Positions 8,799-22,248 of a DNA stretch of 32,000 nt are shown here, one piece after another. The stretch covers positions 2,610,001 to 2,642,000 of the forward strand of contig NC_016803.1 of assembly GCF_000189295.2 (NCBI RefSeq), read 5' to 3'. A program made the translations under genes and the position numbers. The DNA is from Pseudodesulfovibrio mercurii (GTDB lineage Bacteria; Desulfobacterota; Desulfovibrionia; Desulfovibrionales; Desulfovibrionaceae). The stretch's first letter is position 1. Each line of letters opens with the position of its first letter. The notes under the pieces were generated by a model that saw only the letters and a list, made by a program, of their open reading frames with translations, was not told the origin of the DNA and did not search any database.

Positions 8799-9030
8799 GC
8801 CTACCTCCGGGTTGGGGATGACGCTTATATTCCCATAGCCAATCTTTATGTTCCGGGCAAACTTGTGACCGCCCCGCGCGGCGGGCGTATATGGGCCGCG
8901 CAAGGCGGCGGGAGGAGCGGAGGCGGGCGCACCATCCCCGCCCCGGCCGGATTCCGCTGGCGTTATTTTCGTACAGCGGATATTCTGCGCGGAACTCATA
9001 CGCGTTCATCTTTTTCGGCGAGGAGAGCCC

Positions 9031-10809
9031 ATGGCGACGGAAGATCGGGACAACCCGCGGGGCGCGGGGCGCGGTACGATGTTCGAGCGGCTGTACGGGA
9101 TCGTCAACGACTACACGGGCGGGCGGCTCATCGCGCAGCTGACCCCGGAGCGGTTCGGGACGATCTGGCGGGACATCGTCACCGGGTCCGAGCCCGCGCC
9201 CAGGTACTACATCATGGTGGTGGTCTCGACCCTGATCGCCGAGTTCGGCCTGCTGTCCAACAGCACGGCGGTGGTCATCGGGGCCATGCTCGTGGCCCCG
9301 CTGATGACGCCGATCTTCGGCATCTCCCTCGGCCTGGTCCGGGGGAACACCCGGCTCATCCGCAAGGCGCTCAAGTCCGAGGTCCAGGGCGTGCTCATCG
9401 CCGTGGGCATGGGGCTGCTGGTGGGCGGCCTGCTGGTCCTCATCGACCCGGCCATCGAGTCCACCCCGGAGATGCTGGCCCGGACCAAGCCCAACCTGTT
9501 CGACCTGATCGTGGCCCTGCTGGCGGGCTTTGCCGGGGCCTACGCCATCGTGGACGAGAAGATCAGCCCGGCCCTGCCCGGCGTGGCCATCGCCACGGCC
9601 ATCGTGCCGCCCCTGGCCAACTGCGGGCTTTGCCTGGCCTACGGGCTGTACGCCGGGGCGCTCGGCTCGTTCCTCCTGTTCACGGCCAACTTCCTGTCCA
9701 TCCACCTGATCAGCGCGCTGCTGTTCTTCCGGGTGGGCATGGCCAGGGACTACGGCGAGGAGACGCGGGGCGTGGTGGTCAAGCGGTTCGGGCCCACCTT
9801 CGTGCTCTTCGTGGCCATCGCCGTGACCTTCGCCTTTTTCTTGTTCGATACCCTTGAGGAGCGCAAGGTCTACAACGAGGCCTACGCCATCCTGTCCGAG
9901 GAACTTTCCGACTACGCGGCCACCGGCATCGACGGGTTGGAGATCCACCAGGGCAGGGACGGGATGAGCGTCCTGGCCCGCATCTATTCCACCGGGGATT
10001 TCGACCCCAACCAGGTGGGACGCATCGAGGCGCGTCTGGGCCAGAGTCTGGACAGGTCGGTCCATCTGGTGGTCCGGGCCATCAGGACCGCCGACATCTC
10101 GGCCAGGGGCGCGGACGTGCCGGGGCTGAACAAGGCCCTGGAGGGGACCACGCCGTCCTTCAGGATGAACCTGCTGCGCATCACAGAGCAGGTGGTCCGT
10201 GAGTTCCTGGCCGACCGGGTGGGGCTCGATTTCGAGAAGGCGGAGTACCTGCACCTGCCCAACGGCGCGGTCGTGGCGGTCAGCCTGTCCGGGCTGCGCG
10301 GACCGAGCGGGGAGGAGATCCGGGCCATGGAGGAGCGCATCCGGAACGACACGCAGTTCGACGCCCTTCGGCTGCTCATCCGATACACGCGGCAGGACCT
10401 GTTCGACGACCGGGGGCCCATCCGTTCGGCCTGGACCACCTGGATGGAGACCACCGAGGCGCAGCGCCGGGCCGACGAGGAGGGGTGCCGACTGATCGCC
10501 GAGTGGTTCCAGGGCGGGGACAGCCTGCTCGTGACCCGGGTCAACGGGGTGATCGAACCGAACGGCCACACCTTCCTGGTGGAGGCCGAGGGCACCGGCG
10601 AGTACCGCCGGGAGACCCTGGCCGTCCTGCGCGACCGGGTCGGCCGACAGCTCGGCACGCCCGTGACCATCTACGTCTGGCTCAACCACGGCGTGGTCCT
10701 GACCGAGGACGGCCTGGTCCCCTACAACACCCTTCTGGACCGCCGCCTGGACGAGATCCGTCGCAATTCCGGCAAGGAGATCCGGGAACTGCTCGACAGC
10801 TCCCGCTGA
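9031..10809 (+). CDS. DUF389 (TIGR00341-like) integral membrane protein with a ~300-aa soluble C-terminal extension
   Basis: The ATG at 9031 is preceded by GGAGAG. Strings characteristic of DUF389 are present: YIMVVVSTLIAEFGLLSNSTAVVIGAMLVAPLMTPI, LFDLIVALLAGFAGAYA, ALPGVAIATAIVPPL. There are several hydrophobic helices. An alternative start at 9079 (MFERL) cannot be excluded. Confidence 0.8.
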   Translation: MATEDRDNPRGAGRGTMFERLYGIVNDYTGGRLIAQLTPERFGTIWRDIVTGSEPAPRYYIMVVVSTLIAEFGLLSNSTAVVIGAMLVAPLMTPIFGISLGLVRGNTRLIRKALKSEVQGVLIAVGMGLLVGGLLVLIDPAIESTPEMLARTKPNLFDLIVALLAGFAGAYAIVDEKISPALPGVAIATAIVPPLANCGLCLAYGLYAGALGSFLLFTANFLSIHLISALLFFRVGMARDYGEETRGVVVKRFGPTFVLFVAIAVTFAFFLFDTLEERKVYNEAYAILSEELSDYAATGIDGLEIHQGRDGMSVLARIYSTGDFDPNQVGRIEARLGQSLDRSVHLVVRAIRTADISARGADVPGLNKALEGTTPSFRMNLLRITEQVVREFLADRVGLDFEKAEYLHLPNGAVVAVSLSGLRGPSGEEIRAMEERIRNDTQFDALRLLIRYTRQDLFDDRGPIRSAWTTWMETTEAQRRADEEGCRLIAEWFQGGDSLLVTRVNGVIEPNGHTFLVEAEGTGEYRRETLAVLRDRVGRQLGTPVTIYVWLNHGVVLTEDGLVPYNTLLDRRLDEIRRNSGKEIRELLDSSR

Positions 10810-11058: not shown

Positions 11059-13221
11059 TTATTGTTGCGGCGTGAAGAAATACACCGTCATTCCCTGGAC
11101 GACGCCCTTGTTGCGGCTGAATGCGATGAAATTGACCTTTTGCGCTTTCTTGTTGTCCATGATGGCGATGCCGATGCCGTTCTTCGTCTCGTCCTTTACC
11201 AGCAGGTCGTTGTTCATGTTCATGACGGCAACATCGAGCTCCCCGTCCTGTTGCGGTACGCTCATGAACAGATAGTGCCCTGTCTCCTCCAGGTCGATGT
11301 CGAATCCGGAATAAAAGACGCCGTTTCTCTCCTCGTCCAGTGCCAGCTTGTCGATCTTTTTTATCACGGAGACATTCATGTCGGGACTTTGCTTTTTAAG
11401 GACGTAGGTTATGAGTGCGTCGGCCGCGTTGCCCAGGGCGGCGTCCCAATAGGCAATGTCTATCCGCGACCGGGCCGGTTGCCCGTCGCCTTTGGGGGAC
11501 GTGGTGTAGGTCAACCCTATATTGCCGGGTTCTCCGGCCAGGACAAAGGCGTAGTGAGCATAGTTGGCGAAGTCGATTTTCGGGGTGTATGCGCTTATGT
11601 TCTTCTTTCCGGAAAGCACGATTTTCATGCCCTGGATGGTATCTTCGGATTGGATGCGTATCAGGTACAGCCCCGGTCTCTCCAAATGGATTTTCTCCGC
11701 GCCCGCACCCGCGCCCTGGCTGTTTTTCATGAGAACGTCGCTGGATATCGACCAGGCGGATTTCACCGTATCGACGCCGAAGATGTCTTTCGCTGCGTCC
11801 AGGACTTCCTGGTTCGATGTCGTGTAGCCCGGCAGATATTCACGCAGGCTTTCCTTCCACTGCTGCTTCAGGGCCGCGACCCTGCCGTCCGGATCCGGGC
11901 CGAGGAGGTCGAACAGGAAATCGATCCGCTGTCCGAAATTCACGTCGGCGGCGTTGGGAGTCCTGGCCCATGTGCCGGGGGACACGTTCATTGAACTGAT
12001 GATCCCGATGACCTTGCCCTCGGCGGTGAACATCGGGCTTCCGCTAGCGCCGCCGGTGACGGGCAGGCCGTGATGGATCAGCCTGTTGGGAAAGTCGTCT
12101 CGCCGGGTCTGGAAGAAATCGGTGACGCGAATTATCTCGTCCTGTTGGGCCACCGGGGCCGGTTTCTTGTTGTTCCCCGGCAACAGCGCCTCCATCGGGT
12201 AGCCGACAAAGGCCACCGGCATGCCCGGACCGATGGCGGAAAGCTCCTCCATGGTTGCCAGGGGCAGGGGCCGCCCCAGGTCTTCCGGGTTCTCGGGGTA
12301 GAGGATGGCGACGTCCGCAGGGGTGGTGGTTTTGAAGAGCGACAGCTTGTCGCCGACTTTTTGGCAGGGCCAATACCCGCTCCACAGGTCGCCGAAGGCG
12401 GCGTATCCCGGATGGATGAACGCGTCCTTGATGACATAACTCCTGTACGGGGCGACGGGCGAGCGGGCGATCATTTCCTCTTGAGGCTTCAGCCGTTCGA
12501 GCTGACCGGCCACATGGGCGTTGGTCACAAGCCGGTTCCCCTCGATGACCCAGGCGGTGCCTGCGGGCTGTTCCCCTCCCCCGCTGTTCCGGACCAGGAT
12601 CAGATATACGGAGCGGCTGATCCCCTCGATAACCTCGCGGGGAATGCCGTCGGCCTGTCCCTTCACCTGGGTCAGGGTTGCGGATATTGCGTCCAGGCGC
12701 GCGGCCACGCGCTGCACGTTGTCGTCCGAGACGTGGATATCCGATTCCAGCCAGAACTGGTGCTCGCCGATATAGAGCATCGCGGCGCCCAGCAACACGA
12801 GGAAGACGAGCAGGGTTCGGAGATGCCTGTTGGTCCGCTGCACCTGCTCCCCCGCCTGCAGGTTCCTCCCCGTGTTGTTCTTCGGCTGCCTCCGTTCGTC
12901 GATCACCTCGACTTCAATGATGACGTCTTCGCCGAGTTGGACGGTCGCCGTGCCCGCTATCTCCTGATCCTCGAAGGGCGTCTCCCCATCGATCAGGACA
13001 TGGTTGTCCATGTTGAGATCGACCTGGTACCGCCCCAGGCTCCGCCTGAAGGCGATATGCTCATTGCCCATTCCCGTGTCCCGATATCGCTCCGGAAACG
13101 AGATGTCGCAGCTCTCGGCGTCGCAGCCGACGACCACCATTTGATGCCGATGGTCGAAATAATATTCCGTTTTCCGGTCCGACGTCGTGCCCTGGAGAAT
13201 GGAGATCTTGAGTCCTGTCAT
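11059..13221 (-). CDS. FHA-like domain / single TM helix / trypsin-fold (S1, Trypsin_2-like) serine protease / C-terminal beta-rich domains (720 aa)
   Basis: The ATG at 13219-13221 is preceded by AAGGA. aa 1-105 (12907-13221) look FHA-like: VVVGCDAESCDISF..NEHIAFRR..GRYQV.L...VLIDGE...VQLGEDVIIEVEV. The TM helix is LLVFLVLLGAAMLYI (about 12769-12822). The protease domain is aa ~205-440 (11902-12609), with a His/Asp/Ser triad in the canonical order: GTAWVIEGNRLVTNAHV (H236), ADVAILY (D303), GGASGSPMF (S393). The last ~280 aa are beta-rich and possibly form two PPC-like sandwiches, which is a weak call. Confidence 0.85.
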   Translation of the reverse strand: MTGLKISILQGTTSDRKTEYYFDHRHQMVVVGCDAESCDISFPERYRDTGMGNEHIAFRRSLGRYQVDLNMDNHVLIDGETPFEDQEIAGTATVQLGEDVIIEVEVIDERRQPKNNTGRNLQAGEQVQRTNRHLRTLLVFLVLLGAAMLYIGEHQFWLESDIHVSDDNVQRVAARLDAISATLTQVKGQADGIPREVIEGISRSVYLILVRNSGGGEQPAGTAWVIEGNRLVTNAHVAGQLERLKPQEEMIARSPVAPYRSYVIKDAFIHPGYAAFGDLWSGYWPCQKVGDKLSLFKTTTPADVAILYPENPEDLGRPLPLATMEELSAIGPGMPVAFVGYPMEALLPGNNKKPAPVAQQDEIIRVTDFFQTRRDDFPNRLIHHGLPVTGGASGSPMFTAEGKVIGIISSMNVSPGTWARTPNAADVNFGQRIDFLFDLLGPDPDGRVAALKQQWKESLREYLPGYTTSNQEVLDAAKDIFGVDTVKSAWSISSDVLMKNSQGAGAGAEKIHLERPGLYLIRIQSEDTIQGMKIVLSGKKNISAYTPKIDFANYAHYAFVLAGEPGNIGLTYTTSPKGDGQPARSRIDIAYWDAALGNAADALITYVLKKQSPDMNVSVIKKIDKLALDEERNGVFYSGFDIDLEETGHYLFMSVPQQDGELDVAVMNMNNDLLVKDETKNGIGIAIMDNKKAQKVNFIAFSRNKGVVQGMTVYFFTPQQ

Positions 13222-13471
13222 ATGGGGTCCTTGGAGGGTCGAGGGGGGATACGGTCAAATCGCAACGGGCATGACGACGCACGGTGGATTTTCAGTACAC
13301 CAACGGGATCATCAAATCCACGTTGATTCTTCAACGGAACGTCAAGGTCAGGTCTGTTCACGGCCCGTCCCGCGTGCGCCGCCGCCCTCGCGGCGCGACA
13401 GGCGTCGTGTGGCGCCGTCCGAGACGGGGCGTCCCGCCTCTGTCTCCGTATGGGCCGCAGGTCCTTCCGCC

Positions 13472-14203
13472 TCATCTGTTGCGGGTTTTCAAACGCCGTC
13501 CCAACGCACGGGCCAACTGTTCCTTCGTATATTCAACCGGAGCCGGAACGGGGCGCGCCCCGCCCGGAGCGAGTATCGACACTTCGCCGGAAGGGGCCGT
13601 TGAAAGGAGAATTATGGGCATGTCGCGTTTCAGGGCCGCATGGACCGTGGCCGCCGTCCCGAGGGGCGTTGAAATATCCCCGTCGAAAACCGCGACCAAC
13701 AGATCGCTGTGATCGGCCAGGACTTCGGAACACGCGGCATACGCCTCAGGCCGATGCGCGGGGGAGCCGTCGAGTTCGATGATCCGGCCGACGGCCCGGC
13801 CCGCCGTTTTGCCGCCGATGCGGGTCAGCCATCGACGAAATTCGGCAACGGTCCCGTGAACCGGGTCCACGACGCTCGCTTCAGGCAGGAAATCCTTTTC
13901 ATATTCAGCCCTGGCGAAGGGCAGGATGGCGGTCAGGGTGTGTTCGAAGGGTATCAGGCCGGGTTCAATGCAGAGCCTGTCCGCTCCCTCCGCCAAGGAG
14001 GAGACGAACAGAAAACCGGCCTGTCCCCGGGCGGGGAAGTCCCCGGCGCCGTCGGCGGATGCGCGGTAAAGGTCCCGGTAGACTTGTCCGAGCTTTTGCC
14101 GCAGGCCCGGCAGCAACGCCGCCTCCAGACGCCTATGGCCTGCCACGCCGATGCGTATGGGAGAGGTCGCGTCCGTAGCGTGTATCTCTTGAAAAGGTCT
14201 CAT
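13472..14203 (-). CDS. small Rossmannoid protein with SLOG-like (LOG/DprA/YpsA/ThsA-C-terminal type) motifs (243 aa)
   Basis: The start is the ATG at 14201-14203; there is no strong Shine-Dalgarno. The motif order is IRIGVAGHRRL (strand plus Gly-loop), then FVSSLAEGADRL, then HSDLLVAVFDG...PLGTAATVHAAL...MPIILL. This matches the strand-loop-helix series of SLOG-fold proteins. Composition is normal. The gene lies upstream of the FHA-protease gene on the same strand and diverges from the TIR gene. The CDS call is firmer than the family call. Confidence 0.6.
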   Translation of the reverse strand: MRPFQEIHATDATSPIRIGVAGHRRLEAALLPGLRQKLGQVYRDLYRASADGAGDFPARGQAGFLFVSSLAEGADRLCIEPGLIPFEHTLTAILPFARAEYEKDFLPEASVVDPVHGTVAEFRRWLTRIGGKTAGRAVGRIIELDGSPAHRPEAYAACSEVLADHSDLLVAVFDGDISTPLGTAATVHAALKRDMPIILLSTAPSGEVSILAPGGARPVPAPVEYTKEQLARALGRRLKTRNR

Positions 14204-14337
14204 GCGGATGCCGCACCCAACGGCCGGACAATGTGAATGTGAACTTTATAAAAAAGCTAGTATATGGGCTTGCAAATTACAAGTACTCTATTTTAAAAAC
14301 TGTTATGGTTTAATATGTTGCCATATTCGGAGACGCC
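14204..14337. promoter_or_regulatory. AT-rich divergent promoter/operator region between the SLOG-like gene and the TIR gene
   Basis: This 134-bp spacer is by far the most AT-rich stretch in the window (TTTATAAAAAAGCTAGTATATGGGCTTGCAAATTACAAGTACTCTATTTTAAAAACTG). It contains TTGCAA and several TAxxxT-like hexamers. The palindrome AATATG-TTGC-CATATT (14312-14327) abuts the GGAGA Shine-Dalgarno (14329-14333) of the TIR gene. No transcription start can be assigned from sequence alone. Confidence 0.4.
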
Positions 14338-16290
14338 ATGAGTGAGACGGAAAGCCATAGATACAGTGCGTTCATCAGCTATCGGCACACCACAAAAGAC
14401 CGGAAATGGGCCGAGTGGCTTTTGGAGGCCCTGGAGACGTACCGTATTCCGAAGGCATTGCAAAAGGCGGGCTTTCCGGGCCGGGTGGGCAGGGTCTTCC
14501 GCGATCGAGACGAACTCCCGACGGACGGCAGCCTGAACAATCAGATCGAGACGGCGCTCAGGCAATCCAGATTCCTGATCGTCATCTGCTCTCCGGACAC
14601 CCCGCAGTCCAAGTGGGTATCCCGGGAAATCGAAATTTTCAAAGAGTTGGGGCGGGGAGACAAGATCCTCCCCCTGCTGGTCGAAGGTGAGCCGGACGAG
14701 TCCTTCCCCAAGGTGCTGACCACGAGTCGGCTTGTCGGTTTCGAGGAGGCCGAGGCCGATCCGCCGGTCAAGGATGTCGAACCCATAGGCGCGGATGTCC
14801 GGCCGGTGGAGGGCAAAAGCGAAAAGGAGATCAGGAAAGACGAACTGCTGCGGCTGGTGGCCGGGATAATCGGCTGCGGTTTCGATGACCTGAAGCAGCG
14901 GGACAAGGAGCGGGAGCGGAAAAAACGCCAGTACCGCATTATGGGGGGCGCAGTGACGTGCCTGCTGCTTCTCGCGGCCGGGCTTTATTATTGGGACTAT
15001 AATCGCATCAAGACAAGCTACTTTAATAACTACGTCAATGTGTACGGCGTCCCCAAGGGGATAGGGCCAATAAGCGATGAAGAGGCGAAGAAGAGGAATG
15101 TCGCCTATGCGCTTTCGTATCAGCGGGGCAAGCTCATACGCATGGTGCGGCAGAAGGGGGCGCAGAGGGCCATAGCCTACGAACAGTCCTACAATGTCGA
15201 CCCGTGGCTGGTTGGCATCGCCGAATGGCGGTATCAGTATGGAGTTCACGGGAGACTGGATAAGGTCTCCCTGTATGATGCCCAAGGCAAATACAAGGTC
15301 GCCCACAATTATGAATTCCCGACCGACGGGGACAAGGCAACCATCTATTTCCGCAAGATGTCCTATGAAGGCGAGGGCATCCCCACGACGGTTGAATCGA
15401 CCTCGTCCCTGCTCGCCGACTCCATGCAGAACGGCAAGAGTGAAATTTTTCAACACATTGTTTACTTCAACGCGCTTGGTTACGAAAGCAGAAGGGTTTT
15501 CCGCACGATCAGCGGGGGGGCCGCCAAAGACCAGCTCGGCGCCGCGGGGTATGCGTATGCGTATGACGGCCACGGCTCACGCGTGCGTGTCCGTTTCCTG
15601 GACACGCAACAGCATGAACTCATACTCAAATCCGGTCTCGCCGAGATCGTCTGTACTCCCTCCATTGACGGCATCGCCGAAACGATGACGTTCCTGAACG
15701 AAAAGGGCGAGCAGCTATTAACTAAGTTCGGGTATGCGAAAATAGTCGTCGAACTGGACGCTCAGAGAAATGCAACAGGGATAAGCGCTCTGGGGACGGA
15801 CGGGCAGCCGATTCTCCACAAGGAAGGGTACGCCCGGCTGATCCGACGCTATGACGACCGGGGCAACCTCATCGAGGAAGCCTACCGGGGAGTGGATGGT
15901 CGGCCCGTCCTCTGCGATGAGGGCTATGCCAAGGTCACCTGCGCATATGACGACCGAGGCAACGCAACGGAATACGCCTACCAGGGCGCCGACGGTCAAC
16001 CGATTCTCCGCAAGAACGGCTATGCCCGGCTGACCCGACGCTATGACGACCGGGGCAACCTGGTCGAACAAGCCTATTGGGGGGTGGATGGTCGGCCCAT
16101 TCTCCACAAGGATGGTTACGCCGAGGTCTCCTGCGAGTACGATGATCGCGGCAACTTCATCAAGGAAGCGTACCGGGGAGTGGATGGGCGGCCGGTCCTT
16201 TGCGGTTATGGCTATGCCAAGGTCACCTGCGCATATGACGACCGAGGAAGCCTACCGGGGAGTGGATGGTCGGCCCGTCCTCTGCGATGA
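14338..16290 (+). CDS. TIR-domain / single-TM / tandem-repeat protein, 5' portion (ends at a frameshift-induced stop)
   Basis: The ATG at 14338 has a GGAGA Shine-Dalgarno 4 nt upstream. TIR motifs occupy aa ~8-130 (14359-14727): YSAFISYRHTTKD..WAEWL, VFRDRDELPTDGSL...I..AL..SRFLIVICSP....SKWVSREIEIF (conserved Glu at E97), ILPLLVEGEP. The linker is EPIGADVRP...LLRLVAGIIGCGFDDLKQRDKERERKKR. The TM helix is IMGGAVTCLLLLAAGLYYW (about 14938-14991). Degenerate repeats and then canonical 32-aa repeats follow. After codon 16243 the frame reads SLPGSGWSARPLR and then a stop. Confidence 0.85.
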   Translation: MSETESHRYSAFISYRHTTKDRKWAEWLLEALETYRIPKALQKAGFPGRVGRVFRDRDELPTDGSLNNQIETALRQSRFLIVICSPDTPQSKWVSREIEIFKELGRGDKILPLLVEGEPDESFPKVLTTSRLVGFEEAEADPPVKDVEPIGADVRPVEGKSEKEIRKDELLRLVAGIIGCGFDDLKQRDKERERKKRQYRIMGGAVTCLLLLAAGLYYWDYNRIKTSYFNNYVNVYGVPKGIGPISDEEAKKRNVAYALSYQRGKLIRMVRQKGAQRAIAYEQSYNVDPWLVGIAEWRYQYGVHGRLDKVSLYDAQGKYKVAHNYEFPTDGDKATIYFRKMSYEGEGIPTTVESTSSLLADSMQNGKSEIFQHIVYFNALGYESRRVFRTISGGAAKDQLGAAGYAYAYDGHGSRVRVRFLDTQQHELILKSGLAEIVCTPSIDGIAETMTFLNEKGEQLLTKFGYAKIVVELDAQRNATGISALGTDGQPILHKEGYARLIRRYDDRGNLIEEAYRGVDGRPVLCDEGYAKVTCAYDDRGNATEYAYQGADGQPILRKNGYARLTRRYDDRGNLVEQAYWGVDGRPILHKDGYAEVSCEYDDRGNFIKEAYRGVDGRPVLCGYGYAKVTCAYDDRGSLPGSGWSARPLR

Positions 16291-19072
16291 GGGCTATGCC
16301 AAGGTCACCTGCGCATATGACGACCGAGGCAACGCAACGGAATACGCCTACCAGGGCGCCGACGGTCAACCGATTCTCCGCAAGAACGGCTATGCCAGGC
16401 TGACCCGACGCTACGACGACCGGGGCAACCTGATCGAACAAGACTATTGGGGAGCGGATGGTCGGCCGATCCTGCAAAAGAACGGGTACGCCCGGCTGAT
16501 CCAACGCTATGATGACCGGGGCAACCTGATCGAACAATCCTATCGGGGAGTGGATGGTCAGCCCATTCTCCACAGGGATGGTTACGCCGGAGTGACCCAA
16601 ACATACGATGAACACGGCAACCTCATCGAGGAAGCCTATTGGGGCGTGGACGGGCAACCGATTCTCCACAAGGAAGGGTACGCCCGGCTGACCCGACGCC
16701 AGGATGACCGGGGCAACCTCATTGAACAATCCTATTGGGGAGTGGACGGTCGACCGATTCTCCGCAAGAACGGCTTTGCCCGGCTGACCCAACGCTATGA
16801 CGACCGGGGCAACCTGGTCGAACAAGACTATTGGGGCGTGGACGGTCAACCGATCCTCCGCAAGAACGGGTATGCCCGGCTGACCCGACGCTATGATGAT
16901 CGGGGCAACCTGATCGAACAATCCTATTGGGGGGTCGGCGGCCAACCGATTCTCCACGAAGAGGGTTACGCCCGGCTGATCCAACGCTATGACGACCGGG
17001 GCAACCTCATCGAACAATCCTATTGGGGGGTGGATGGTCGGCCGGTCCTCCGCGATAACGGCTATGCCAGGCTCACCTGCGAATATGATGATCGCGGCAG
17101 CCTCATCGGGGAGGCCTATTGGGGAGTCGGCGGGCAACCGATTCTCCACAAGGATGGGTACGCCCGGCTGAGCCAACAATACGATGACCGGGGCAACCTG
17201 ATTGAACAATCCTATTGGGGCGTGGACGACCGGCCGATTCTCCACAAGAACGGGTATGCCAGGCTCACCTGCGAATATGATGATCGCGGCAGCCTCATCG
17301 AGGAAGCCTATTGGGGCGTCGACGGGCAACCGATTCTCCAAAGGGATGGGTACGCCAGGTTGGCCCAACAATACGATGACCGGGGCAACCTGATTGAACA
17401 ATCCTATTGGGGCGTGGACGGTCAACCGATTCTTCGCAAGAAGGGGTTTGCCAGGCTGACCCAACGCTATGATGATCGCGGCAACATTCTTGAGGAAGCC
17501 TATTGGGGCGCCGACGGTCAGCCGATTCTCAATAAGGATGGCTACGCCAGGCTGACCCGGAAATACGACGGCCGGGACAACGTGACGGAATATGCCTACT
17601 GGGGAACCGACGGGCAGCCGATCCTCTGCAAAAACTATTTCGCCAGGCTGACCCAGAAATACGATGGTCGGGGCAATCTCGTCGAGGAGGCCTACTGGGG
17701 AACCGACGGGCAACCGATCCTTTGCAAAAACGCTTTCGCCAGGTTGACCCAACGCTATGATGGGCGGGGCAACCTCATTGAACAGGCCTATTGGGGACCT
17801 GATGGGCGGCCGATCCTTTGCAGTAACGGGTATGCCGGGTTCACCAGCGAATATGATGGCCGGGGCAACGTCATTGGACTAGCCTATTGGGGCGTTGACG
17901 GGAAGCCGACGTTTCTCAAAGCGGGCTATTGCATGCAGACCCGGCAATATGATGATCGAGGCAACGTCATTGAGGAAGCCTACTGGGGACCCGATGGGCA
18001 GCCGATCCTTTGCAGAAAAGGGTATGCCCGGGTCACTCAGCAATATGATGATCGGGGCAATGTCACGGGATACGCCTACTGGGGGGTAAGCGGGCAGCCG
18101 ATTCTTCAATGGGAGGGCTATGCCGGGGACACTCGAAAGTATGATGATCGAGACAACGTTACGGAACATGCCTACTGGGGAACCGATGGACGGCCGATCC
18201 TCTGCACGGAGGGGTATGCCAAGGTCGCCCTACGCTATGATGGTCGAGGGAACCTCATCGAAGAAGTCTACCTGGGAATGGACGGGCAGCCGGTCCTGAG
18301 CAAAAGAACCGGTTTTTCCAGGCTCACAAAGAAATATGACGCCCAAGGGAATGTAACGGAATATGCGTGCTGGGGCGTTGACGGGAAACCCATCCTGCAT
18401 CCCGGCGGCTTTTCCAAATTCCTCGTGCGACATGATGCCCGGGGAAATCATATTGAGGAAGCCTATTACGGTCCGTCGGGAAAGCCCGTTCTTATCCAAA
18501 AAGGCTACGCCAAGCTCACCGAAAGGTATGACGATCGAGGGTACCGGATCGAGCAGGCCTATTGGGGAGTAGATGGAGCGCCCATCCTCCGGAAAGACGG
18601 TTTTGCCAAGCTCACCGAAAGGTATGATGGTCGAGGGCATGTCACGGAGCAAGCGTACTGGGGAGTGGACGGTAGGCCGATTCTCCACAAAAAGGGTTAT
18701 GCCAAGGTCACCTACGAGTATGATGATCGGGGCAACGTCATCGAGGAAGCCTACTGGGGAGTGGATGGACGGCCGATCCTCAACCAAAATGGATATGCCA
18801 GGCTGACCCCGAAACATGACGACCGAGGCAACATCATTGAGGAAGCCTACTGGGGAGTGGATGGACGGCCGATCCTCAACGGAGAGGGGTGTGCCGTGCT
18901 GACGCTCAAGTATGACGGCCGGGGGAACGTCACGGAACACGCCTTTTGGGGAATAGACGGAAGACCCATATCGGGTGCAAAGGGATATGCCAAATGCACC
19001 CTGAAATATGCTCCCGAGACGAATGCATTGCTCGAAGTCCGCTACTATGACGCAAAGGGAAATGTCATGAAG
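15730..19072 (+). repeat. coding tandem array: 35 units of 96 bp (32 aa), consensus GYARLTRRYDDRGNLIEQAYWGVDGRPILxKx (YD/RHS-like beta-hairpin repeat)
   Basis: I counted the units directly from the translation: 6 in the first ORF and 29 in the second. One unit is 82 bp (16234-16315), one is 33 aa, and the last is a degenerate 30 aa. Each unit looks like two 16-aa halves (xxAxxxxxYDxxGNxI and ExAYWGxDGxPIxxxx). 15873-16026 is identical to 16243-16396 (154 nt). A 37-nt string (GCTATGCCAAGGTCACCTGCGCATATGACGACCGAGG) occurs three times. Confidence 0.9.
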
Positions 19073-19075
19073 TAA
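16043..19075 (+). CDS. 3' portion of the same TIR-repeat gene (29 further 32-aa repeat units), in the +1 frame relative to 14338..16290
   Basis: The ORF-track frame opens at 16043, but its first ~67 codons are out-of-frame readings of the repeats. Meaningful repeat translation starts at 16244 (EEAYRGVDGRPVLCDEGYAKVTCAYDDRGN...). It runs to the TAA at 19073-19075. There is no independent Shine-Dalgarno or start context at 16244, so this is most simply the continuation of one disrupted gene. Confidence 0.7.
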   Translation: MTTGATWSNKPIGGWMVGPFSTRMVTPRSPASTMIAATSSRKRTGEWMGGRSFAVMAMPRSPAHMTTEEAYRGVDGRPVLCDEGYAKVTCAYDDRGNATEYAYQGADGQPILRKNGYARLTRRYDDRGNLIEQDYWGADGRPILQKNGYARLIQRYDDRGNLIEQSYRGVDGQPILHRDGYAGVTQTYDEHGNLIEEAYWGVDGQPILHKEGYARLTRRQDDRGNLIEQSYWGVDGRPILRKNGFARLTQRYDDRGNLVEQDYWGVDGQPILRKNGYARLTRRYDDRGNLIEQSYWGVGGQPILHEEGYARLIQRYDDRGNLIEQSYWGVDGRPVLRDNGYARLTCEYDDRGSLIGEAYWGVGGQPILHKDGYARLSQQYDDRGNLIEQSYWGVDDRPILHKNGYARLTCEYDDRGSLIEEAYWGVDGQPILQRDGYARLAQQYDDRGNLIEQSYWGVDGQPILRKKGFARLTQRYDDRGNILEEAYWGADGQPILNKDGYARLTRKYDGRDNVTEYAYWGTDGQPILCKNYFARLTQKYDGRGNLVEEAYWGTDGQPILCKNAFARLTQRYDGRGNLIEQAYWGPDGRPILCSNGYAGFTSEYDGRGNVIGLAYWGVDGKPTFLKAGYCMQTRQYDDRGNVIEEAYWGPDGQPILCRKGYARVTQQYDDRGNVTGYAYWGVSGQPILQWEGYAGDTRKYDDRDNVTEHAYWGTDGRPILCTEGYAKVALRYDGRGNLIEEVYLGMDGQPVLSKRTGFSRLTKKYDAQGNVTEYACWGVDGKPILHPGGFSKFLVRHDARGNHIEEAYYGPSGKPVLIQKGYAKLTERYDDRGYRIEQAYWGVDGAPILRKDGFAKLTERYDGRGHVTEQAYWGVDGRPILHKKGYAKVTYEYDDRGNVIEEAYWGVDGRPILNQNGYARLTPKHDDRGNIIEEAYWGVDGRPILNGEGCAVLTLKYDGRGNVTEHAFWGIDGRPISGAKGYAKCTLKYAPETNALLEVRYYDAKGNVMK

Positions 19076-21008
19076 TGGACAACCCGCAAGACTCCTTCAG
19101 CAACTTCGGCAGGGTCCGTTGCATGTCCCTGTCGAATTCCTTTGTCTTTTCACTCAGCTCGTCAAAGGGGATCATGTCCGGGTGCGTCAGGCGCAAATCG
19201 TCGCGCGGTCCTTTTTCCCAGCCCGCCAGGACGCGTTCGACCCACCAGCGGTTGTGCTCCTGTTCGGCCATGGTCTCGATTTGTTCGTCGGTGAACGTGG
19301 CGTTGTCCGTATCCGCCTCGGCGGCGGCCAGGCTGAATCCGTTGCTCCTCAGGCGCTCGAGATAGGCGTCCGCCTGGTAGCGGTTCGACCAGCGGTATTT
19401 CTCGCTCAGCCGTTCCCAGGGCTTTTGCGCGGGTTTGTTCCGATCCATCCAGCCGTTGGCCTGCAACGTGTTCAGATATACCTGATGAATGGACCGCGCC
19501 AACCGTTCCTGCTGGGCGTCGTCAAGAAGGTACTCGTCCAGCGAGCCGAAGAAACGGATATTGTCCCACCGGGTGTCCGGGGCCTCCACCTGCCGGTCCT
19601 TTTCCCTGGTCGTGACCGAAACGGCGGTTTGCTCCTGAAGCCGCCGGGCGAATTCGGAAAGACCGGCGGTCACTTCCTGCCGGACCAATATCGGAATCTC
19701 GCCGATCAGCACCTCGGGGGGCAATCCCAGGGCCGTGGACATGGACTGGTCGGGATCGGAGAGACAGATGACCACGGTGAGTATTTTCTTTTCGTCCAAG
19801 GCCAGCCCGGTCAGCAATTCCCTGGCCTCGGGAGCATCCGCCGCGGCCTCGTGAAAGACGAAGCGCACGCCGGGCAGGCGGCCATCCACCAGGCCGTGCT
19901 GCATCTCGAAAGCGGTCCTCCTTGTGCCGAGGTCGGGATCAAAAACCACGATTTCGGCATCCTGGTTGTTGGCATGGTTGGCCAGCCGCGCCGCCTGCAA
20001 GGCCATGGCCTGCCCCATCTGCCCGAATCCGAGGATCGCGACCACCACGTTCGCGCCCGGGGCGCGCCTACTGTACAGTAGCGGAGGGTAGGGGGGATGC
20101 GGATGGCGGGCGTCCGGCAGGCGGCTCCAGACCTTGCGGGCCCAGCCTTCGTAAAAATTGAAGGGGCGGAAATCCAGGAATTGGCGGTCTTCCTCCGACA
20201 GATCGATCTCCTGGAGCAGATCGTATGTCCGCAGATGGGAAATGGCCACCTGGCAGCCGAGCAGGCCGGATGGGGTGCCGGGAGATGCCTTGGAAACCAT
20301 CTCCGCTATGCGCATGGCCGTTTGCAGGTTGCGGCTGTTGCTGCCCCTTACCTGGGGATCGCCCAAGATGACCACCTTCCGTGCGGCCCAGGGGCGGAGA
20401 TTCCGTAATTCTTCAACGGCATCGAAGGACCCGTGGAAAATGAAGACATGCCGGGTTTTCTTTCGGAGTTCCTTTGCATCAAAAGCGGAGAAGGTCGTGA
20501 GGGCGTTGCGCACCTTCTCGGCCTCGCTCATGGTCAGGACGACCACCTCCCGGCATCCCTCGGAAAGCAGGTGATGCACCGTTGCGGGACCCATGCGGTC
20601 CCACCCCAAGATGATGCCGTGGTCCTTCTTGAAGGTATACCGGGCAAGCCCTTGACGAGCCCGGCGCATGCGGCGCTCATACGTGTTCACCAGCACCGAG
20701 ACGAACAGGCCCCCCAAAAGGAGGAACCCGGCCAGGGATAAAGCCACACTGAGAAGACGCCATTCGGAATGTCCCGCCTCATTTCCCAAAAAGCCCGGAT
20801 CCATCGTGTGTACGAACGCCCACCAGAACGGATCACAGGAATTCGTTCCGAGAACGTCGATGTTCATGCTCTTGGCAACCAGCCATCCCGCCAGGAGGAT
20901 GACGCAATAGGTAACGATCAGCATCCGGACTTGACTGAAAACGGACCCGGCCAAGATCCTGTCGAGCTGTTTGGAAATGAAGCTGCAAGGCAAGATTTTC
21001 ATTGTCAC
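19065..21008 (-). CDS. 2-TM ion-channel-like protein with two RCK/TrkA-N-like Rossmann modules and C-terminal tandem RyR-type domains (647 aa)
   Basis: The likely start is the GTG at 21006-21008, with AAGGA 6 nt upstream; an alternative ATG lies at 21000-21002. TM1 is VRMLIVTYCVILLAGWLVA. The pore-helix-like string is DPFWWAFVHTMDPGFLG, which has no TVGYG filter. TM2 is LLSVALSLAGFLLLGGLFVSVLV. The channel region spans about 20679-20927. Rossmann motifs are GIILGWDRMG and VVAILGFGQMGQA. RyR-type motifs lie at about 19089-19511: ERLARSIHQVYLNTLQANGW...KPWERLSEKYRWSNRYQADAYLERLRSNGF and MAEQEHNRWWVERVLAGWEKGP...THPDMIPFDELSEKTKEFDRDM. The stop codon overlaps the convergent TIR-repeat gene by 11 bp. 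Confidence 0.8.
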   Translation of the reverse strand: MTMKILPCSFISKQLDRILAGSVFSQVRMLIVTYCVILLAGWLVAKSMNIDVLGTNSCDPFWWAFVHTMDPGFLGNEAGHSEWRLLSVALSLAGFLLLGGLFVSVLVNTYERRMRRARQGLARYTFKKDHGIILGWDRMGPATVHHLLSEGCREVVVLTMSEAEKVRNALTTFSAFDAKELRKKTRHVFIFHGSFDAVEELRNLRPWAARKVVILGDPQVRGSNSRNLQTAMRIAEMVSKASPGTPSGLLGCQVAISHLRTYDLLQEIDLSEEDRQFLDFRPFNFYEGWARKVWSRLPDARHPHPPYPPLLYSRRAPGANVVVAILGFGQMGQAMALQAARLANHANNQDAEIVVFDPDLGTRRTAFEMQHGLVDGRLPGVRFVFHEAAADAPEARELLTGLALDEKKILTVVICLSDPDQSMSTALGLPPEVLIGEIPILVRQEVTAGLSEFARRLQEQTAVSVTTREKDRQVEAPDTRWDNIRFFGSLDEYLLDDAQQERLARSIHQVYLNTLQANGWMDRNKPAQKPWERLSEKYRWSNRYQADAYLERLRSNGFSLAAAEADTDNATFTDEQIETMAEQEHNRWWVERVLAGWEKGPRDDLRLTHPDMIPFDELSEKTKEFDRDMQRTLPKLLKESCGLSITS

Positions 21009-21164
21009 GTTTCATCCTTGTCGAAGAAGATGGATACCCGCATGCGTCATGTGGGGCCTGCGGCACAAAATGAACGTTTGCCGAGGCCCTCGTTTCAGAT
21101 CCGGGCTTGCGTCCGCTCCCGGCTTCTTTCCGGCCGTCCATTCCAGGCAATTTGCCTGATGGAT

Positions 21165-21254
21165 GGCAAACTCCGCAGGCGTCGGGTTGCCCAAGGAACA
21201 GAGAGGACGATCCACATTGTAGTCCCGCCTCCACGCTCCGACTTTACGCTGCGT
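21165..21254 (-). pseudogene. remnant of an IS3-family transposase (C-terminal end of the rve/integrase-core OrfB)
   Basis: The translation TQRKVGAWRRDYNVDRPLCSLGNPTPAEFA matches the conserved IS3 OrfB C-terminal signature (..W...YN..RPHSSLG..TP.EF), with HS replaced by LC. I could not find the catalytic core upstream in any frame, so only about 30 codons survive. Confidence 0.55.
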
Positions 21255-22172
21255 ATCCCCCGGAGACAATCAACATGTCCAGCCGGCCATATCAACAGGA
21301 GAATCGGACAATAACCCTCCTCTTGCAAGGGTATAGCCCGTGGACATCTTCGGAGCAACCTTGCGCTTTTTACTCTCCGAAGCATTCGCTCCCGCGCGTG
21401 TTGTCGTGAGCCTTGCCCCTATTCCTGGGCGCCGGCCGCTTGGCAACCACAGGGAAGAACGGAGGCGGCGAAAAGGGACGAAACGTCCGTCCGTCGCCTC
21501 TGCCGATCCCCGATCCCCAACCGGATTCCTCCAGGCGTTTTTCGGCAAGATGTATGGGTGATGCGCCACCCGGACCTGTGGCCATGGGTTCCGGTTCCAG
21601 GCGAAGCGCTTCGGTCTGGATTCCCCGGTCGCCGGGCTCCGTCCGTCCGCTTTCGCCTGGGCGTCATGCGGGGCGGAATGAAGCTCCACGTTGTTCGACC
21701 AAAACGGATGGCTGCCCGCCTTCGTCCGGGTGACCAAGGCCCGGCTGCACGATTCCGGGATGGCCGAGATGCTGAAGCGGCCCAAGGGGTCCATCGCCGT
21801 ATGACCAGGCCCACGGCAACCATTCCCGGTTTCGGACGCTGGAAGCTCCCCGCGTGTCCCTTGTCGCCAGGCGCGGGACCAACGCCCTTCATGCAGAGGT
21901 CAGGCGACGTTCTGCCGGGAAAGGCGGGGCGTGACCTCGGGCCGCGCGGTCAACGCCATCGTCCGCGGCAAGGCGTTCCGCCTTCGGCGCAGGGGCGACC
22001 GAGACAGGGAAAGCGGAAAGTACCAAGCGGTTGCGAGGATCGAGGCCCTGTGGGTTGATGAGACCGACACCGCACGGCAAGAAGCCGTTGAAGCGTGAGG
22101 AAGATCGACGAGAATTCACCCACCCACGAAAAAGGCTTCCGTCAAAACTGACGAAAGCCTTTGATTCCGAAG

Positions 22173-22248
22173 TGGTGCTCGGGGACAGAATTGAACTGCC
22201 GACACGGGGATTTTCAGTCCCCTGCTCTACCGACTGAGCTACCCGAGC
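22173..22248 (-). tRNA. tRNA-Phe (anticodon GAA), 76 nt with encoded CCA
   Basis: The reverse complement reads GCTCGGGTAGCTCAGTCGGTAGAGCAGGGGACTGAAAATCCCCGTGTCGGCAGTTCAATTCTGTCCCCGAGCACCA. The acceptor stem GCTCGGG/CCCGAGC is perfect, as are the D stem GCTC/GAGC and the anticodon stem GGGGA/TCCCC. The anticodon loop is CTGAAAA, placing GAA at positions 34-36. The T arm is GGCAG-TTCAATT-CTGTC, and a 3' CCA is encoded. Confidence 0.95.

Follow-up and report, generated by a model that had tools for sequence, protein, structure and literature searches.

A channel-like protein with RCK domains and tandem RyR repeats beside a TIR gene of Pseudodesulfovibrio mercurii: a candidate nucleotide-gated effector

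Several described systems each share a part with the protein treated here, a P-loop channel homologue with two RCK domains and tandem RyR repeats, which is encoded next to a TIR gene in a 32,000-nucleotide stretch of the Pseudodesulfovibrio mercurii genome (contig NC_016803.1, positions 2,610,001 to 2,642,000 of the forward strand; the whole stretch is called the window below). The plant channel CASTOR is Ca2+-selective, has a filter predicted to read A-D265-S/A-G-N-H-A and carries no current as the D265N variant (PMC6697748). The phage RyR-domain protein RyDEP binds 2'cADPR as well as 3'cADPR, isomers of cyclic ADP-ribose (cADPR), and cleaves them, using residues H75, W78, H100 and D117; H75 and D117 form the catalytic dyad, and the pocket residues are conserved across the domain family PF02026 (PMC13232231). 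Of eight other phage RyDEP homologues, all with the residues conserved, none cleaved the signals and six bound them; phage homologues other than RyDEP are described as high-affinity sponges (PMC13232231). A second phage protein, RyR Tad, binds 3'cADPR, 2'cADPR and cADPR via the equivalent residues H129/W132, H154 and D171 (10.64898/2026.06.04.730250). A survey of TIR systems from December 2025 distinguishes 29 putative Thoeris types, among them type X, whose effector, ThsK, is called an “ion channel” and whose signal is unknown (10.64898/2025.12.03.692087). Finally, DUF4062 (“NIR”) is a TIR-like NADase that makes ADP-ribose (ADPR) (10.64898/2026.05.01.722283; 10.64898/2026.09.04.749371).

Here, we compare the P. 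mercurii locus with these systems. We give a probability of roughly 60% to the reading that the channel is a Thoeris-like effector, or one of them, that is gated by an ADPR-type nucleotide made by a TIR protein. Within this reading, the gene product would be a ligand-gated channel for cations that belongs by its architecture with MthK, GsuK and CASTOR, presumably assembled as a tetramer. The parts of the protein are as follows.

19065..21008, minus strand: whole channel open reading frame, 647 residues, GTG start; P-loop channel, RCK1, RCK2 and tandem RyR
20868..20942, minus strand: first transmembrane helix (TM1), residues 23-47, placed by the AlphaFold2 model (predicted local distance difference test score, pLDDT, 91-96), hydropathy and alignment to TM1 of MthK and GsuK; an amphipathic helix (9-20) precedes it
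20778..20834, minus strand: pore helix 60-69 and filter-position loop D70-P71-G72-F73-L74 (DPFWWAFVHTMDPGFLGNE), placed by profile alignment
20655..20768, minus strand: second transmembrane helix (TM2, inner helix), residues 81-118, which continues as the RCK linker; G94, G100 and N108 conserved; AlphaFold2
20109..20627, minus strand: RCK1, residues ~128-300, degenerate glycine motif H130...G135-W-D-R-M-G140; weak TrkA_N match, profile and Foldseek matches
19539..20057, minus strand: RCK2, residues ~318-490, intact G327-F-G-Q-M-G332 ... D357; F420_oxidored/NAD-binding matches
19341..19520, minus strand: degenerate RyR repeat 1, residues ~497-556 (H508, Y511, W531, N542, R543), placed by an internal match, conservation and Foldseek
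19086..19289, minus strand: RyR repeat 2, residues ~574-641, with pocket H585/W588/H609/D626; Pfam RyR and RyR matches in the Protein Data Bank (PDB)

The open reading frame is 100% identical to an NCBI entry from Pseudodesulfovibrio mercurii that is named “Ryanodine receptor Ryr / RyR domain-containing protein”; NCBI places the start at 21002, two codons later, which gives 645 residues. All peptides quoted in the original prediction, which had been made from the letters and translations of this DNA, were found in the protein, namely DPFWWAFVHTMDPGFLGNE at residues 59-77, GWDRMG at 135, GFGQMG at 327, EHNRWW at 584, THPD at 608 and FDRD at 625. A scan for promoters and terminators around the channel gene gave nothing above chance, and an NCBIfam scan gave no match for the protein.

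The domain architecture is supported by structure prediction. Two AlphaFold2 monomer models were made, one from 10 sequences (pLDDT 78) and one from 87 family sequences (pLDDT 92.3, predicted template modelling score 0.89), and the order of the parts is identical in both. An amphipathic helix (residues 9-20) is followed by TM1 (23-47), a small hairpin (52-57) and a short helix (60-69); after a turn at D70-P71-G72 come a short helix (71-77) and the long TM2 (81-118), which leads to two Rossmann-type domains (~128-300 and 318-490) and an all-helical C-terminal module (498-641). When the PDB was searched with Foldseek (template modelling scores, TM-scores, are quoted as normalised to the target), RCK and dual-RCK channels ranked first, with GsuK at a TM-score of 0.63 and MthK in its closed state at 0.51-0.54 (rmsd 4.2-4.6). 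The gating rings of LjCASTOR and MtDMI1 reached 0.44-0.45 (6o7a/7vm8, E = 2e-8 to 4e-7), and matches to Slo1 and Slo2.2 were also obtained.

Like GsuK and MthK, the protein runs in the order TM1, pore helix, loop, TM2 and RCK, and, as in GsuK, each subunit contains two RCK domains together with a Rossmann site for nucleotides; GsuK and MthK gave the best profile matches as well as the best Foldseek matches. Homology in the pore region was assessed with a profile of the first 240 residues, built from 21 diverse relatives (alignment A3). The profile matched GsuK (E = 7.7e-15; profile 17-223 aligned with chain 9-207) and MthK (E = 1.8e-13; profile 31-234 aligned with chain 20-202), unbroken from TM1 via the P-loop and TM2 to RCK1, and it also matched chains that consist of a pore only, that is, the KvLm pore module (E = 0.002, profile 28-111) and Kv1.3 S5-S6 (E = 0.003). 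The two hydrophobic helices noticed earlier lie at ~23-47 and 81-118, with the short helix 60-69 between them, and the suspected re-entrant pore was borne out: the unit of TM1, pore helix, loop and TM2 is formed, and over its whole extent the family profile shows homology with MthK and GsuK. The pore topology is also supported by the AlphaFold2 model (pLDDT 86-96). Unlike GsuK and MthK, the protein has D-P-G-F-L in place of T-V/L-G-Y/F-G, carries an extra C-terminal tandem RyR module and has a TIR-linked context.

The claim of a non-canonical filter held, the positions of TVGYG being occupied by D70-P71-G72-F73-L74. In the HMMER alignment, the family sequence l-w-l-v-l-l-h-f-l-D-P-G-n-l falls on L-Y-W-T-F-V-T-I-A-T-V-G-Y-G of MthK and on I-Y-W-T-I-T-V-M-T-T-L-G-F-G of GsuK. 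The K+ signature T-[VIL]-G-[YF]-G does not occur at the aligned positions of the target, and for this reason the protein should not be called a K+ channel; on sequence grounds, it is a P-loop channel homologue without the K+ signature. The MDPGF motif singled out by the original prediction is conserved in part. Of 87 relatives, 36 have Asp and 11 have Glu at position 70 (D/E in 47/87), G72 is kept in 55/87 and P71 is found in 37/87; the consensus of 158 sequences at the filter reads F-[LIV]-D-P-G-[NSYF]. In a second subfamily (the channel N-termini of L003, L005, L013, L034 and L038, loci being referred to by L numbers; e.g. L013:5536-7443), the loop is L-Q-L-F-T-L-E-S-G-S, again with an acidic residue, one variable position and Gly, and members have a canonical TrkA_N GLGxxG motif. 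We take this loop to resemble T-L-E-S-W, the sequence that serves bacterial sodium channels as selectivity filter.

The analogy with CASTOR and POLLUX that had been drawn earlier is apt, in that D-P-G-(N) parallels A-D-S/A-G-N-H-A and the CASTOR and DMI1 rings rank near the top of both the structural and the profile matches. The RCK regions of CASTOR and DMI1 matched the A3 profile with E = 6e-9 to 2e-8, next best after MthK and GsuK, so that the analogy is well founded. Like CASTOR, POLLUX and DMI1, the protein has a tandem-RCK ring, and the family consensus at the non-K+ filter, D-P-G-N, resembles their Asp-x-G-N. Unlike in CASTOR, position 73 of the target is Phe where both the family consensus and CASTOR have Asn, the D-x-G core being shared, and the likeness in the pore comes from this motif only, the solved CASTOR and DMI1 chains being without the pore. 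The plant proteins, which are Ca2+ channels of the nucleus, further have four predicted transmembrane helices, no RyR domain and Ca2+ gating, whereas the target has two transmembrane helices plus the amphipathic helix. With D-P-G in place of TVGYG, a tetramer would have its acidic residues arranged in a ring, as CASTOR does, and given such a ring the pore is probably Ca2+-permeable or non-selective for cations rather than K+-selective.

The two Rossmann modules of the original prediction were confirmed structurally, with beta-alpha-beta units starting at 130 and 320. Their placement as RCK domains after TM2 is confirmed by Foldseek (GsuK, Slo1 and the CASTOR rings), by RCK matches of the profile and by TrkA_N in relatives. 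In the Pfam search, the expected TrkA_N match was marginal in the target itself (residues 132-170, E = 0.02), whereas relatives gave strong ones (E down to 2e-22); the expected RyR match was strong. In RCK2, the glycine motif is conserved almost throughout (G327 in 86/87, G332 in 85/87), as is D357, the acidic residue at the end of the second strand (83/87), a motif pattern that is typical of dinucleotide-binding RCK/TrkA domains. An identity as an oxidoreductase was considered and rejected, as the Pfam F420_oxidored and NAD_binding matches cover only the GxGxxG turn of RCK2.

The C-terminal module sets the protein apart from GsuK, MthK and CASTOR. Pfam RyR (PF02026) was found at residues 575-638 (E = 7e-15; 55.5 bits, the gathering score being 27.4), and RyR entries of the PDB matched with E values down to 3e-18. 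Of the two RyR repeats proposed earlier, repeat 2 is borne out by Pfam, whereas repeat 1 is degenerate and depends on three weaker results, namely an internal match to repeat 2 (PAQKPWERLSEKYRWSNR / PDMIPFDELSEKTKEFDR, E = 0.014), the near-invariance of Y511, W531 and R543 in relatives and a Foldseek alignment of the whole module with Repeat12 of human RyR3 (9ls7) over 187 columns with a TM-score of 0.57. Residues H585, W588, H609 and D626 correspond to H75, W78, H100 and D117 of RyDEP and form a predicted ligand pocket; their spacing is +3, +24 and +41, compared with +3, +25 and +42 in RyDEP (one indel allowed), and they are conserved in the 87 relatives (H585 in 83, W588 in all 87, H609 in 68 and D626 in 84).

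The original prediction had stated that bacterial RyR domains lack an assigned ligand. This is outdated, as two preprints from 2026 show that phage RyR-domain proteins bind 2'cADPR and 3'cADPR, and these data strengthen the idea, raised at the same time, that the channel answers to a nucleotide. Like RyDEP and RyR Tad, the target belongs to PF02026 and has the same His/Trp/His/Asp pocket. Those proteins are small, soluble, homodimeric and serve phages in anti-defence, whereas the target is a chromosomal membrane protein of 647 residues in which two repeats in one chain are fused to a membrane channel. By analogy, having two repeats per chain would reproduce the arrangement of the phage homodimer and of the Repeat12 pair in animals. 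As in animal ryanodine receptors, which are Ca2+ release channels with a long-debated link to cADPR from NAD-consuming enzymes, a domain of the RyR Repeat12 type is joined to a putative cation channel; the animal pore (6 transmembrane helices) and overall architecture are unrelated to those of the target, and what is shared is the repeat domain and possibly the ligand class. Host RyR-domain effectors are not described in either RyR-domain phage paper (PMC13232231; 10.64898/2026.06.04.730250).

The family of such channels is large. An exhaustive profile search gave 17,226 cluster representatives with E <= 1e-3 and 3,319 (50% identity) with E <= 1e-30, the top 150 being full-length matches with E < 1e-96; a word-index homologue search had given only 12 relatives and understated the family size. 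With a family of this size, the observation is not one of chance. A phage origin was rejected, only one partial relative being present in IMG/VR. Genomic neighbourhoods were compared in about 50 loci, including 12 loci from a genome scan by one peptide pattern, a modest sample that is biased to sequences with the CLSDPD motif.

In this sample, the homologues repeatedly adjoin genes for TIR or for TIR-like DUF4062 NADases, the association that the original prediction had made a point of, and this recurrent neighbourhood is observed directly. A TIR gene adjoins relatives in at least seven lineages, archaea included, often in a tight two-gene operon; the distance between the two is 0-2 genes in the window, in L003/L004, L005/L006, L007, L009, L016, L018 and L020 and in 11/27 metagenome loci. 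In L003/L004 and L005/L006, a gene for a TIR_2 protein with one transmembrane helix and a C-type lectin domain lies 3-31 bp downstream of the channel, with an integrase nearby in L005. In Methanoregula/Methanomicrobiales (L016, L018 and L020) and in eight similar metagenome loci, the order is Vps4-like AAA, TIR_2 and channel, with 4-bp gaps. The order in L034 is channel, TIR_2 protein with a transmembrane helix and TPR repeats, and AAA-RyR, and that in L007 is TPR/Sel1, TIR with a transmembrane helix, WD40, a 93-residue RyR protein, channel, and a sigma-r4/peptidase-C39/RyR protein. A TIR gene is also found beside the channel in L009, a Bacteroidales metagenome-assembled genome, and in L043. 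In L013/L055 and L035/37/38/40/41, the channel is flanked by AAA-RyR, WD40 and DUF4062-NACHT STAND proteins. An exception to the TIR context is L059, where the genes next to the channel encode a beta-helix/InlB-repeat protein and an M48 peptidase.

Many of the partner TIR proteins have a cytoplasmic N-terminal TIR domain, one transmembrane helix and an extracytoplasmic part made of YD, C-type lectin, TPR or WD40 domains (for example, L003:9807-10925, L005:7800-8915, L034:2951-5227, L058:16101-19607 and 14338-16290 of the window). Seen from sequence, this layout is the topology of Toll-like receptors.

RyR domains also occur on other proteins of these loci. They are fused to AAA ATPases of 814-933 residues (L034:5304-7745, L035:64-2862 and L038:115-2703) and to a sigma70-r4/peptidase-C39 protein (L007:8204-9511, RyR E = 2.8e-33), and one stands alone as a 93-residue protein (L007:5600-5881); all three kinds share their TIR or DUF4062 loci with the channel. 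The presence of RyR on several effector-like proteins near NAD-cleaving enzymes makes it look like a portable sensor module, which would by analogy resemble the pattern of the SLOG, Macro, SAVED and CARF sensor domains in other signalling systems. DUF4062(NIR)-NACHT(-WD40) STAND proteins are encoded in operon with RyR channels and AAA-RyR in L013:1175-5575, L038:6533-9265, L041:7042-9774 and L055:175-4575. Because of these operons, it may be suggested that the NIR NADase feeds a signalling pathway and does not act by NAD+ depletion only. RyR and channels are unmentioned in both DUF4062 papers (10.64898/2026.05.01.722283; 10.64898/2026.09.04.749371).

In the window itself, the following features surround the channel gene.

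14338..16290, plus strand: protein with TIR (residues 12-121; 14371-14700), a transmembrane helix (201-219; 14938-14994) and YD/RHS-type repeats; putative signal generator
16043..19075, plus strand: YD-repeat open reading frame (YD_repeat_2x, E = 4e-21), convergent with the channel gene, its stop overlapping the channel stop by 11 bp
13472..14203, minus strand: SLOG/nucleoside-deoxyribosyltransferase-like protein, an open reading frame of 243 residues (214 as annotated), divergent from the TIR gene
11059..13221, minus strand: 720-residue transmembrane protein with a trypsin-like peptidase domain (Trypsin_2, E = 1.3e-12), encoded downstream of the SLOG-like gene; possible second effector
21012..21269, minus strand: remnant of a transposase (rve_3), immediately upstream of the channel gene
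22173..22248, minus strand: tRNA-Phe, at the edge of a low-GC island (~11-22 kb)

The gene order is therefore trypsin-like protease (minus), SLOG/deoxyribosyltransferase-like protein (minus), TIR protein with transmembrane helix and YD repeats (plus) and channel (minus). The segment of ~11-22 kb has a GC content of 56-63%, compared with 65-74% on either side, and this dip, together with the rve_3 remnant and the tRNA-Phe gene, marks the TIR/channel segment as a horizontally acquired island. Just outside it lie a minus-strand open reading frame for a 2101-residue protein with VWA (2694-8999) and a plus-strand gene for a DUF389 membrane protein (9031-10809).

The neighbouring TIR gene on which the earlier idea of a nucleotide signal had leaned is real (14338-16290, plus strand; TIR_2, E = 4.5e-15). 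A W-x-x-x-E-type motif, SKWVSREIE, was recognised by eye and in an alignment with Thoeris TIRs, and includes the predicted catalytic Glu. The gene is read as two open reading frames, of 650 and 1010 residues, with a change of frame inside the repeat near 16243-16290, downstream of the TIR domain and the transmembrane helix; the YD-repeat frame continues the extracytoplasmic repeats of the TIR protein. Homologous TIR proteins adjoin channels in L007, L009 and L058. The last of these, a metagenomic locus whose channel is 65-67% identical, keeps the cassette block with different flanking genes: it has the channel, an intact open reading frame of 1297 residues for the TIR protein with transmembrane helix and YD repeats (12114-16007), a second gene for TIR, a transmembrane helix and WD40, and a homologue of the 243-residue protein. 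Since the block is kept with other flanks, the cassette is a conserved unit, and since the frame is intact there, the split in the window points either to a real pseudogenising frameshift or to a collapse of the repeat in the assembly. The 243-residue family has the motif SPLAEGADR ... WDG..G.GGT, no Pfam match of its own and weak repeated matches to nucleoside 2-deoxyribosyltransferase and SLOG families (YAcAr, DprA and YpsA). In L014 and L015, its homologues are encoded immediately upstream of the channel, and in L056 beside TIR_2 and nSTAND genes.

Like Thoeris, including the membrane effectors of type X and of types II/V/VII, the locus pairs a TIR gene with a membrane protein that has a putative nucleotide sensor, and the logic to be expected is alike, with a signal that activates the effector and so arrests growth. 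An identity with ThsK was rejected. From the gene order, we took ThsK to be a B. cereus protein (L027:3247-3987) whose gene shares an operon with that of a homologue of the type X TIR (89% identical); it has 246 residues, several transmembrane helices and no Pfam match, and BLASTP against the target gave E >= 14. The TIRs also differ, being ThsB/DUF1863 there and TIR_2 here, where the TIR protein often crosses the membrane once and carries an extracytoplasmic domain. A plasmid search with the type X TIR retrieved type II (Macro) systems and no others. In the B. cereus type X-like locus, a 380-residue protein with a faint Nuc_deoxyrib_tr match is encoded convergently to the TIR gene (L026/L027:4544-5686, minus strand) and echoes the deoxyribosyltransferase/SLOG-like gene of the window.

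Neither RyR nor TrkA occurs in the survey's text, and its tables, searched up to about the entry “DUF2270”, contain neither these terms nor the window TIR peptide or the CW[IV]APRD motif, an absence that proves little. In the text, “ryanodine” occurs only for animal cADPR signalling (10.64898/2025.12.03.692087). No report of RyR as a Thoeris sensor domain was found in the searchable texts, figure labels lying outside them, and in a literature collection that is incomplete we found no prior description of Thoeris or RyR with TrkA, or of ryanodine with SLOG and TIR. Taken by analogy, what would be new is the combination of a sensor domain and a channel effector, alongside the known TIR logic of signalling plus effector.

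A number of results weigh against a TIR-gated channel effector and have to be set beside those in its favour. In the window, the TIR gene does lie beside the channel, as had been said, but the two genes are convergent with stops that overlap by 11 bp and share no operon; they are likewise convergent in L058 and operonic in L003, L005, L016, L018 and L020. With the TIR-YD gene split by a frameshift, the window copy may be impaired. The monomer model, in which residues 71-77 form a short helix and not an extended K+-type filter, and the archaeal relatives described below, in which no P-loop is recognisable, also count against it. No PADLOC model matches the channel. A Bacteroidales subfamily of ~700 residues (L001, L002, L008, L010, L012 and L030-L033) invariably sits between dnaG and creD and lacks a TIR neighbour; it has a Slo-like_RCK Pfam match and keeps the RyR motif residues, with Pfam RyR not called. 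Not all family members are thus immune-linked, and the fixed position suggests a non-immune housekeeping branch. Repeat12 of animal RyR binds ATP and ADP, and with the Rossmann site of RCK2 kept as well, the ligand could be an ordinary metabolite. Of these points, the convergent genes, the missing PADLOC match, the Bacteroidales branch and ATP binding by animal Repeat12 also speak for a rival account, a housekeeping cation channel for ion homeostasis or stress, gated by ATP, ADP or NAD(H) at RyR and/or RCK2, or by Ca2+, with no functional tie to the TIR gene in this genome; they are joined by the near-invariant GxGxxG...D motif of RCK2 and by GsuK, the best structural match, which is activated by NAD+ and ADP (PMC3510474). 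We consider this account unlikely, although it is the rival with most to be said for it. TIR and DUF4062 genes recur beside family members in both bacteria and archaea, often on the same strand at 3-31 bp; the channel and its TIR partner stay together in the 65%-identical relative with different flanks; the segment is a low-GC island with an insertion sequence remnant at a tRNA gene; and the AAA and peptidase C39 fusions of RyR sit in the same loci.

The conserved His/Asp dyad of RyDEP, which in the target is H585/D626, could also mean that the RyR domain hydrolyses a signal instead of sensing it. The protein would then be a membrane-anchored, RyDEP-like regulator or off-switch that removes the TIR signal as a glycosidase or sponge, and the true effector would be the SLOG/deoxyribosyltransferase-like protein together with the trypsin-like protease. 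Both the window and L058 carry the SLOG/deoxyribosyltransferase-like gene by the TIR gene, followed in the window by the protease gene, and caspase-like proteases and SLOG domains are known effector and sensor modules of Thoeris (10.64898/2025.12.03.692087). We regard this as improbable, given that many two-gene operons of TIR and channel (L003, L005, L018 and L020) hold no other candidate effector, that the conserved pore, gating-ring and RCK2 features are unneeded by a mere hydrolase anchor, and that cleavage was seen in none of the eight other phage homologues despite their conserved residues, six of which bound the signals. Very improbable, in our view, is a third account in which there is no channel at all and the helices merely anchor a cytoplasmic Rossmann enzyme or scaffold, toxicity coming from membrane disruption on oligomerisation, as has reportedly been proposed for other transmembrane Thoeris and CBASS effectors. 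The filter motif is present in only about half of the relatives (D/E70 and G72, as counted above), and F420_oxidored/NAD-binding matches do occur in Pfam. Archaeal TIR-linked relatives (L016:5782-7491, L018:1053-2786, L020:853-2346, L044 and L050) keep RCK and RyR and have two hydrophobic helices with a short loop in which no P-loop is recognisable. Against the third account stand the homology to MthK and GsuK, which extends unbroken from TM1 over P-loop and TM2 as far as RCK1, the independent matches to pore-only K+ channel chains, the confidently modelled P-helix and the conserved G94, G100 and N108 of TM2.

If the channel is indeed a TIR-gated effector, it might work as follows. A trigger, for example phage attack or envelope damage, would activate the TIR protein, whose TIR domain would turn NAD+ into an ADPR-derived nucleotide, either a cADPR isomer or ADPR. 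The nucleotide would bind the RyR pocket formed by H585, W588, H609 and D626; the RCK ring, which the two RCK domains of each subunit would build on the cytoplasmic side, would relay the change to the inner helices, and a pore lined by a ring of Asp70 would open. The resulting cation flux might collapse the membrane potential or load the cell with Ca2+ or Na+, so that growth and phage replication would stop.

A wider and more tentative reading joins these elements, and we hold it to be somewhat doubtful as a whole. RyR repeats might be ancient receptors for NAD-derived (c)ADPR-type signals, with prokaryotic TIR and DUF4062 NADases signalling to RyR effectors, foremost the CASTOR-like, probably Ca2+-permeable channel. 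The locus might then be a prokaryotic counterpart, and possibly the evolutionary source, of an animal axis, and it might represent a new Thoeris-like class in which one signal reaches several RyR-tagged effectors, that is, the channel, the AAA ATPase and the C39 peptidase.

The protein is already annotated as “Ryanodine receptor Ryr”; the novelty lies in how its function is read and in its context. If the reading is right, an RCK-gated cation channel would be a new effector, and RyR a new sensor, in bacterial and archaeal TIR immunity, and the phage RyR sponges and glycosidases would copy or compete with the host's own receptor domain. The DUF4062/NIR STAND proteins would become possible generators of signals, not only depleters of NAD+, and plant Ca2+ channels of the CASTOR/DMI1 type would be linked to a large prokaryotic family. 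Binding of cADPR-type nucleotides by Repeat12, coupled to channel gating, has long been contested in animal Ca2+ signalling; the P. mercurii channel and its relatives would offer a small bacterial model in which such binding and its coupling to gating could be tested.

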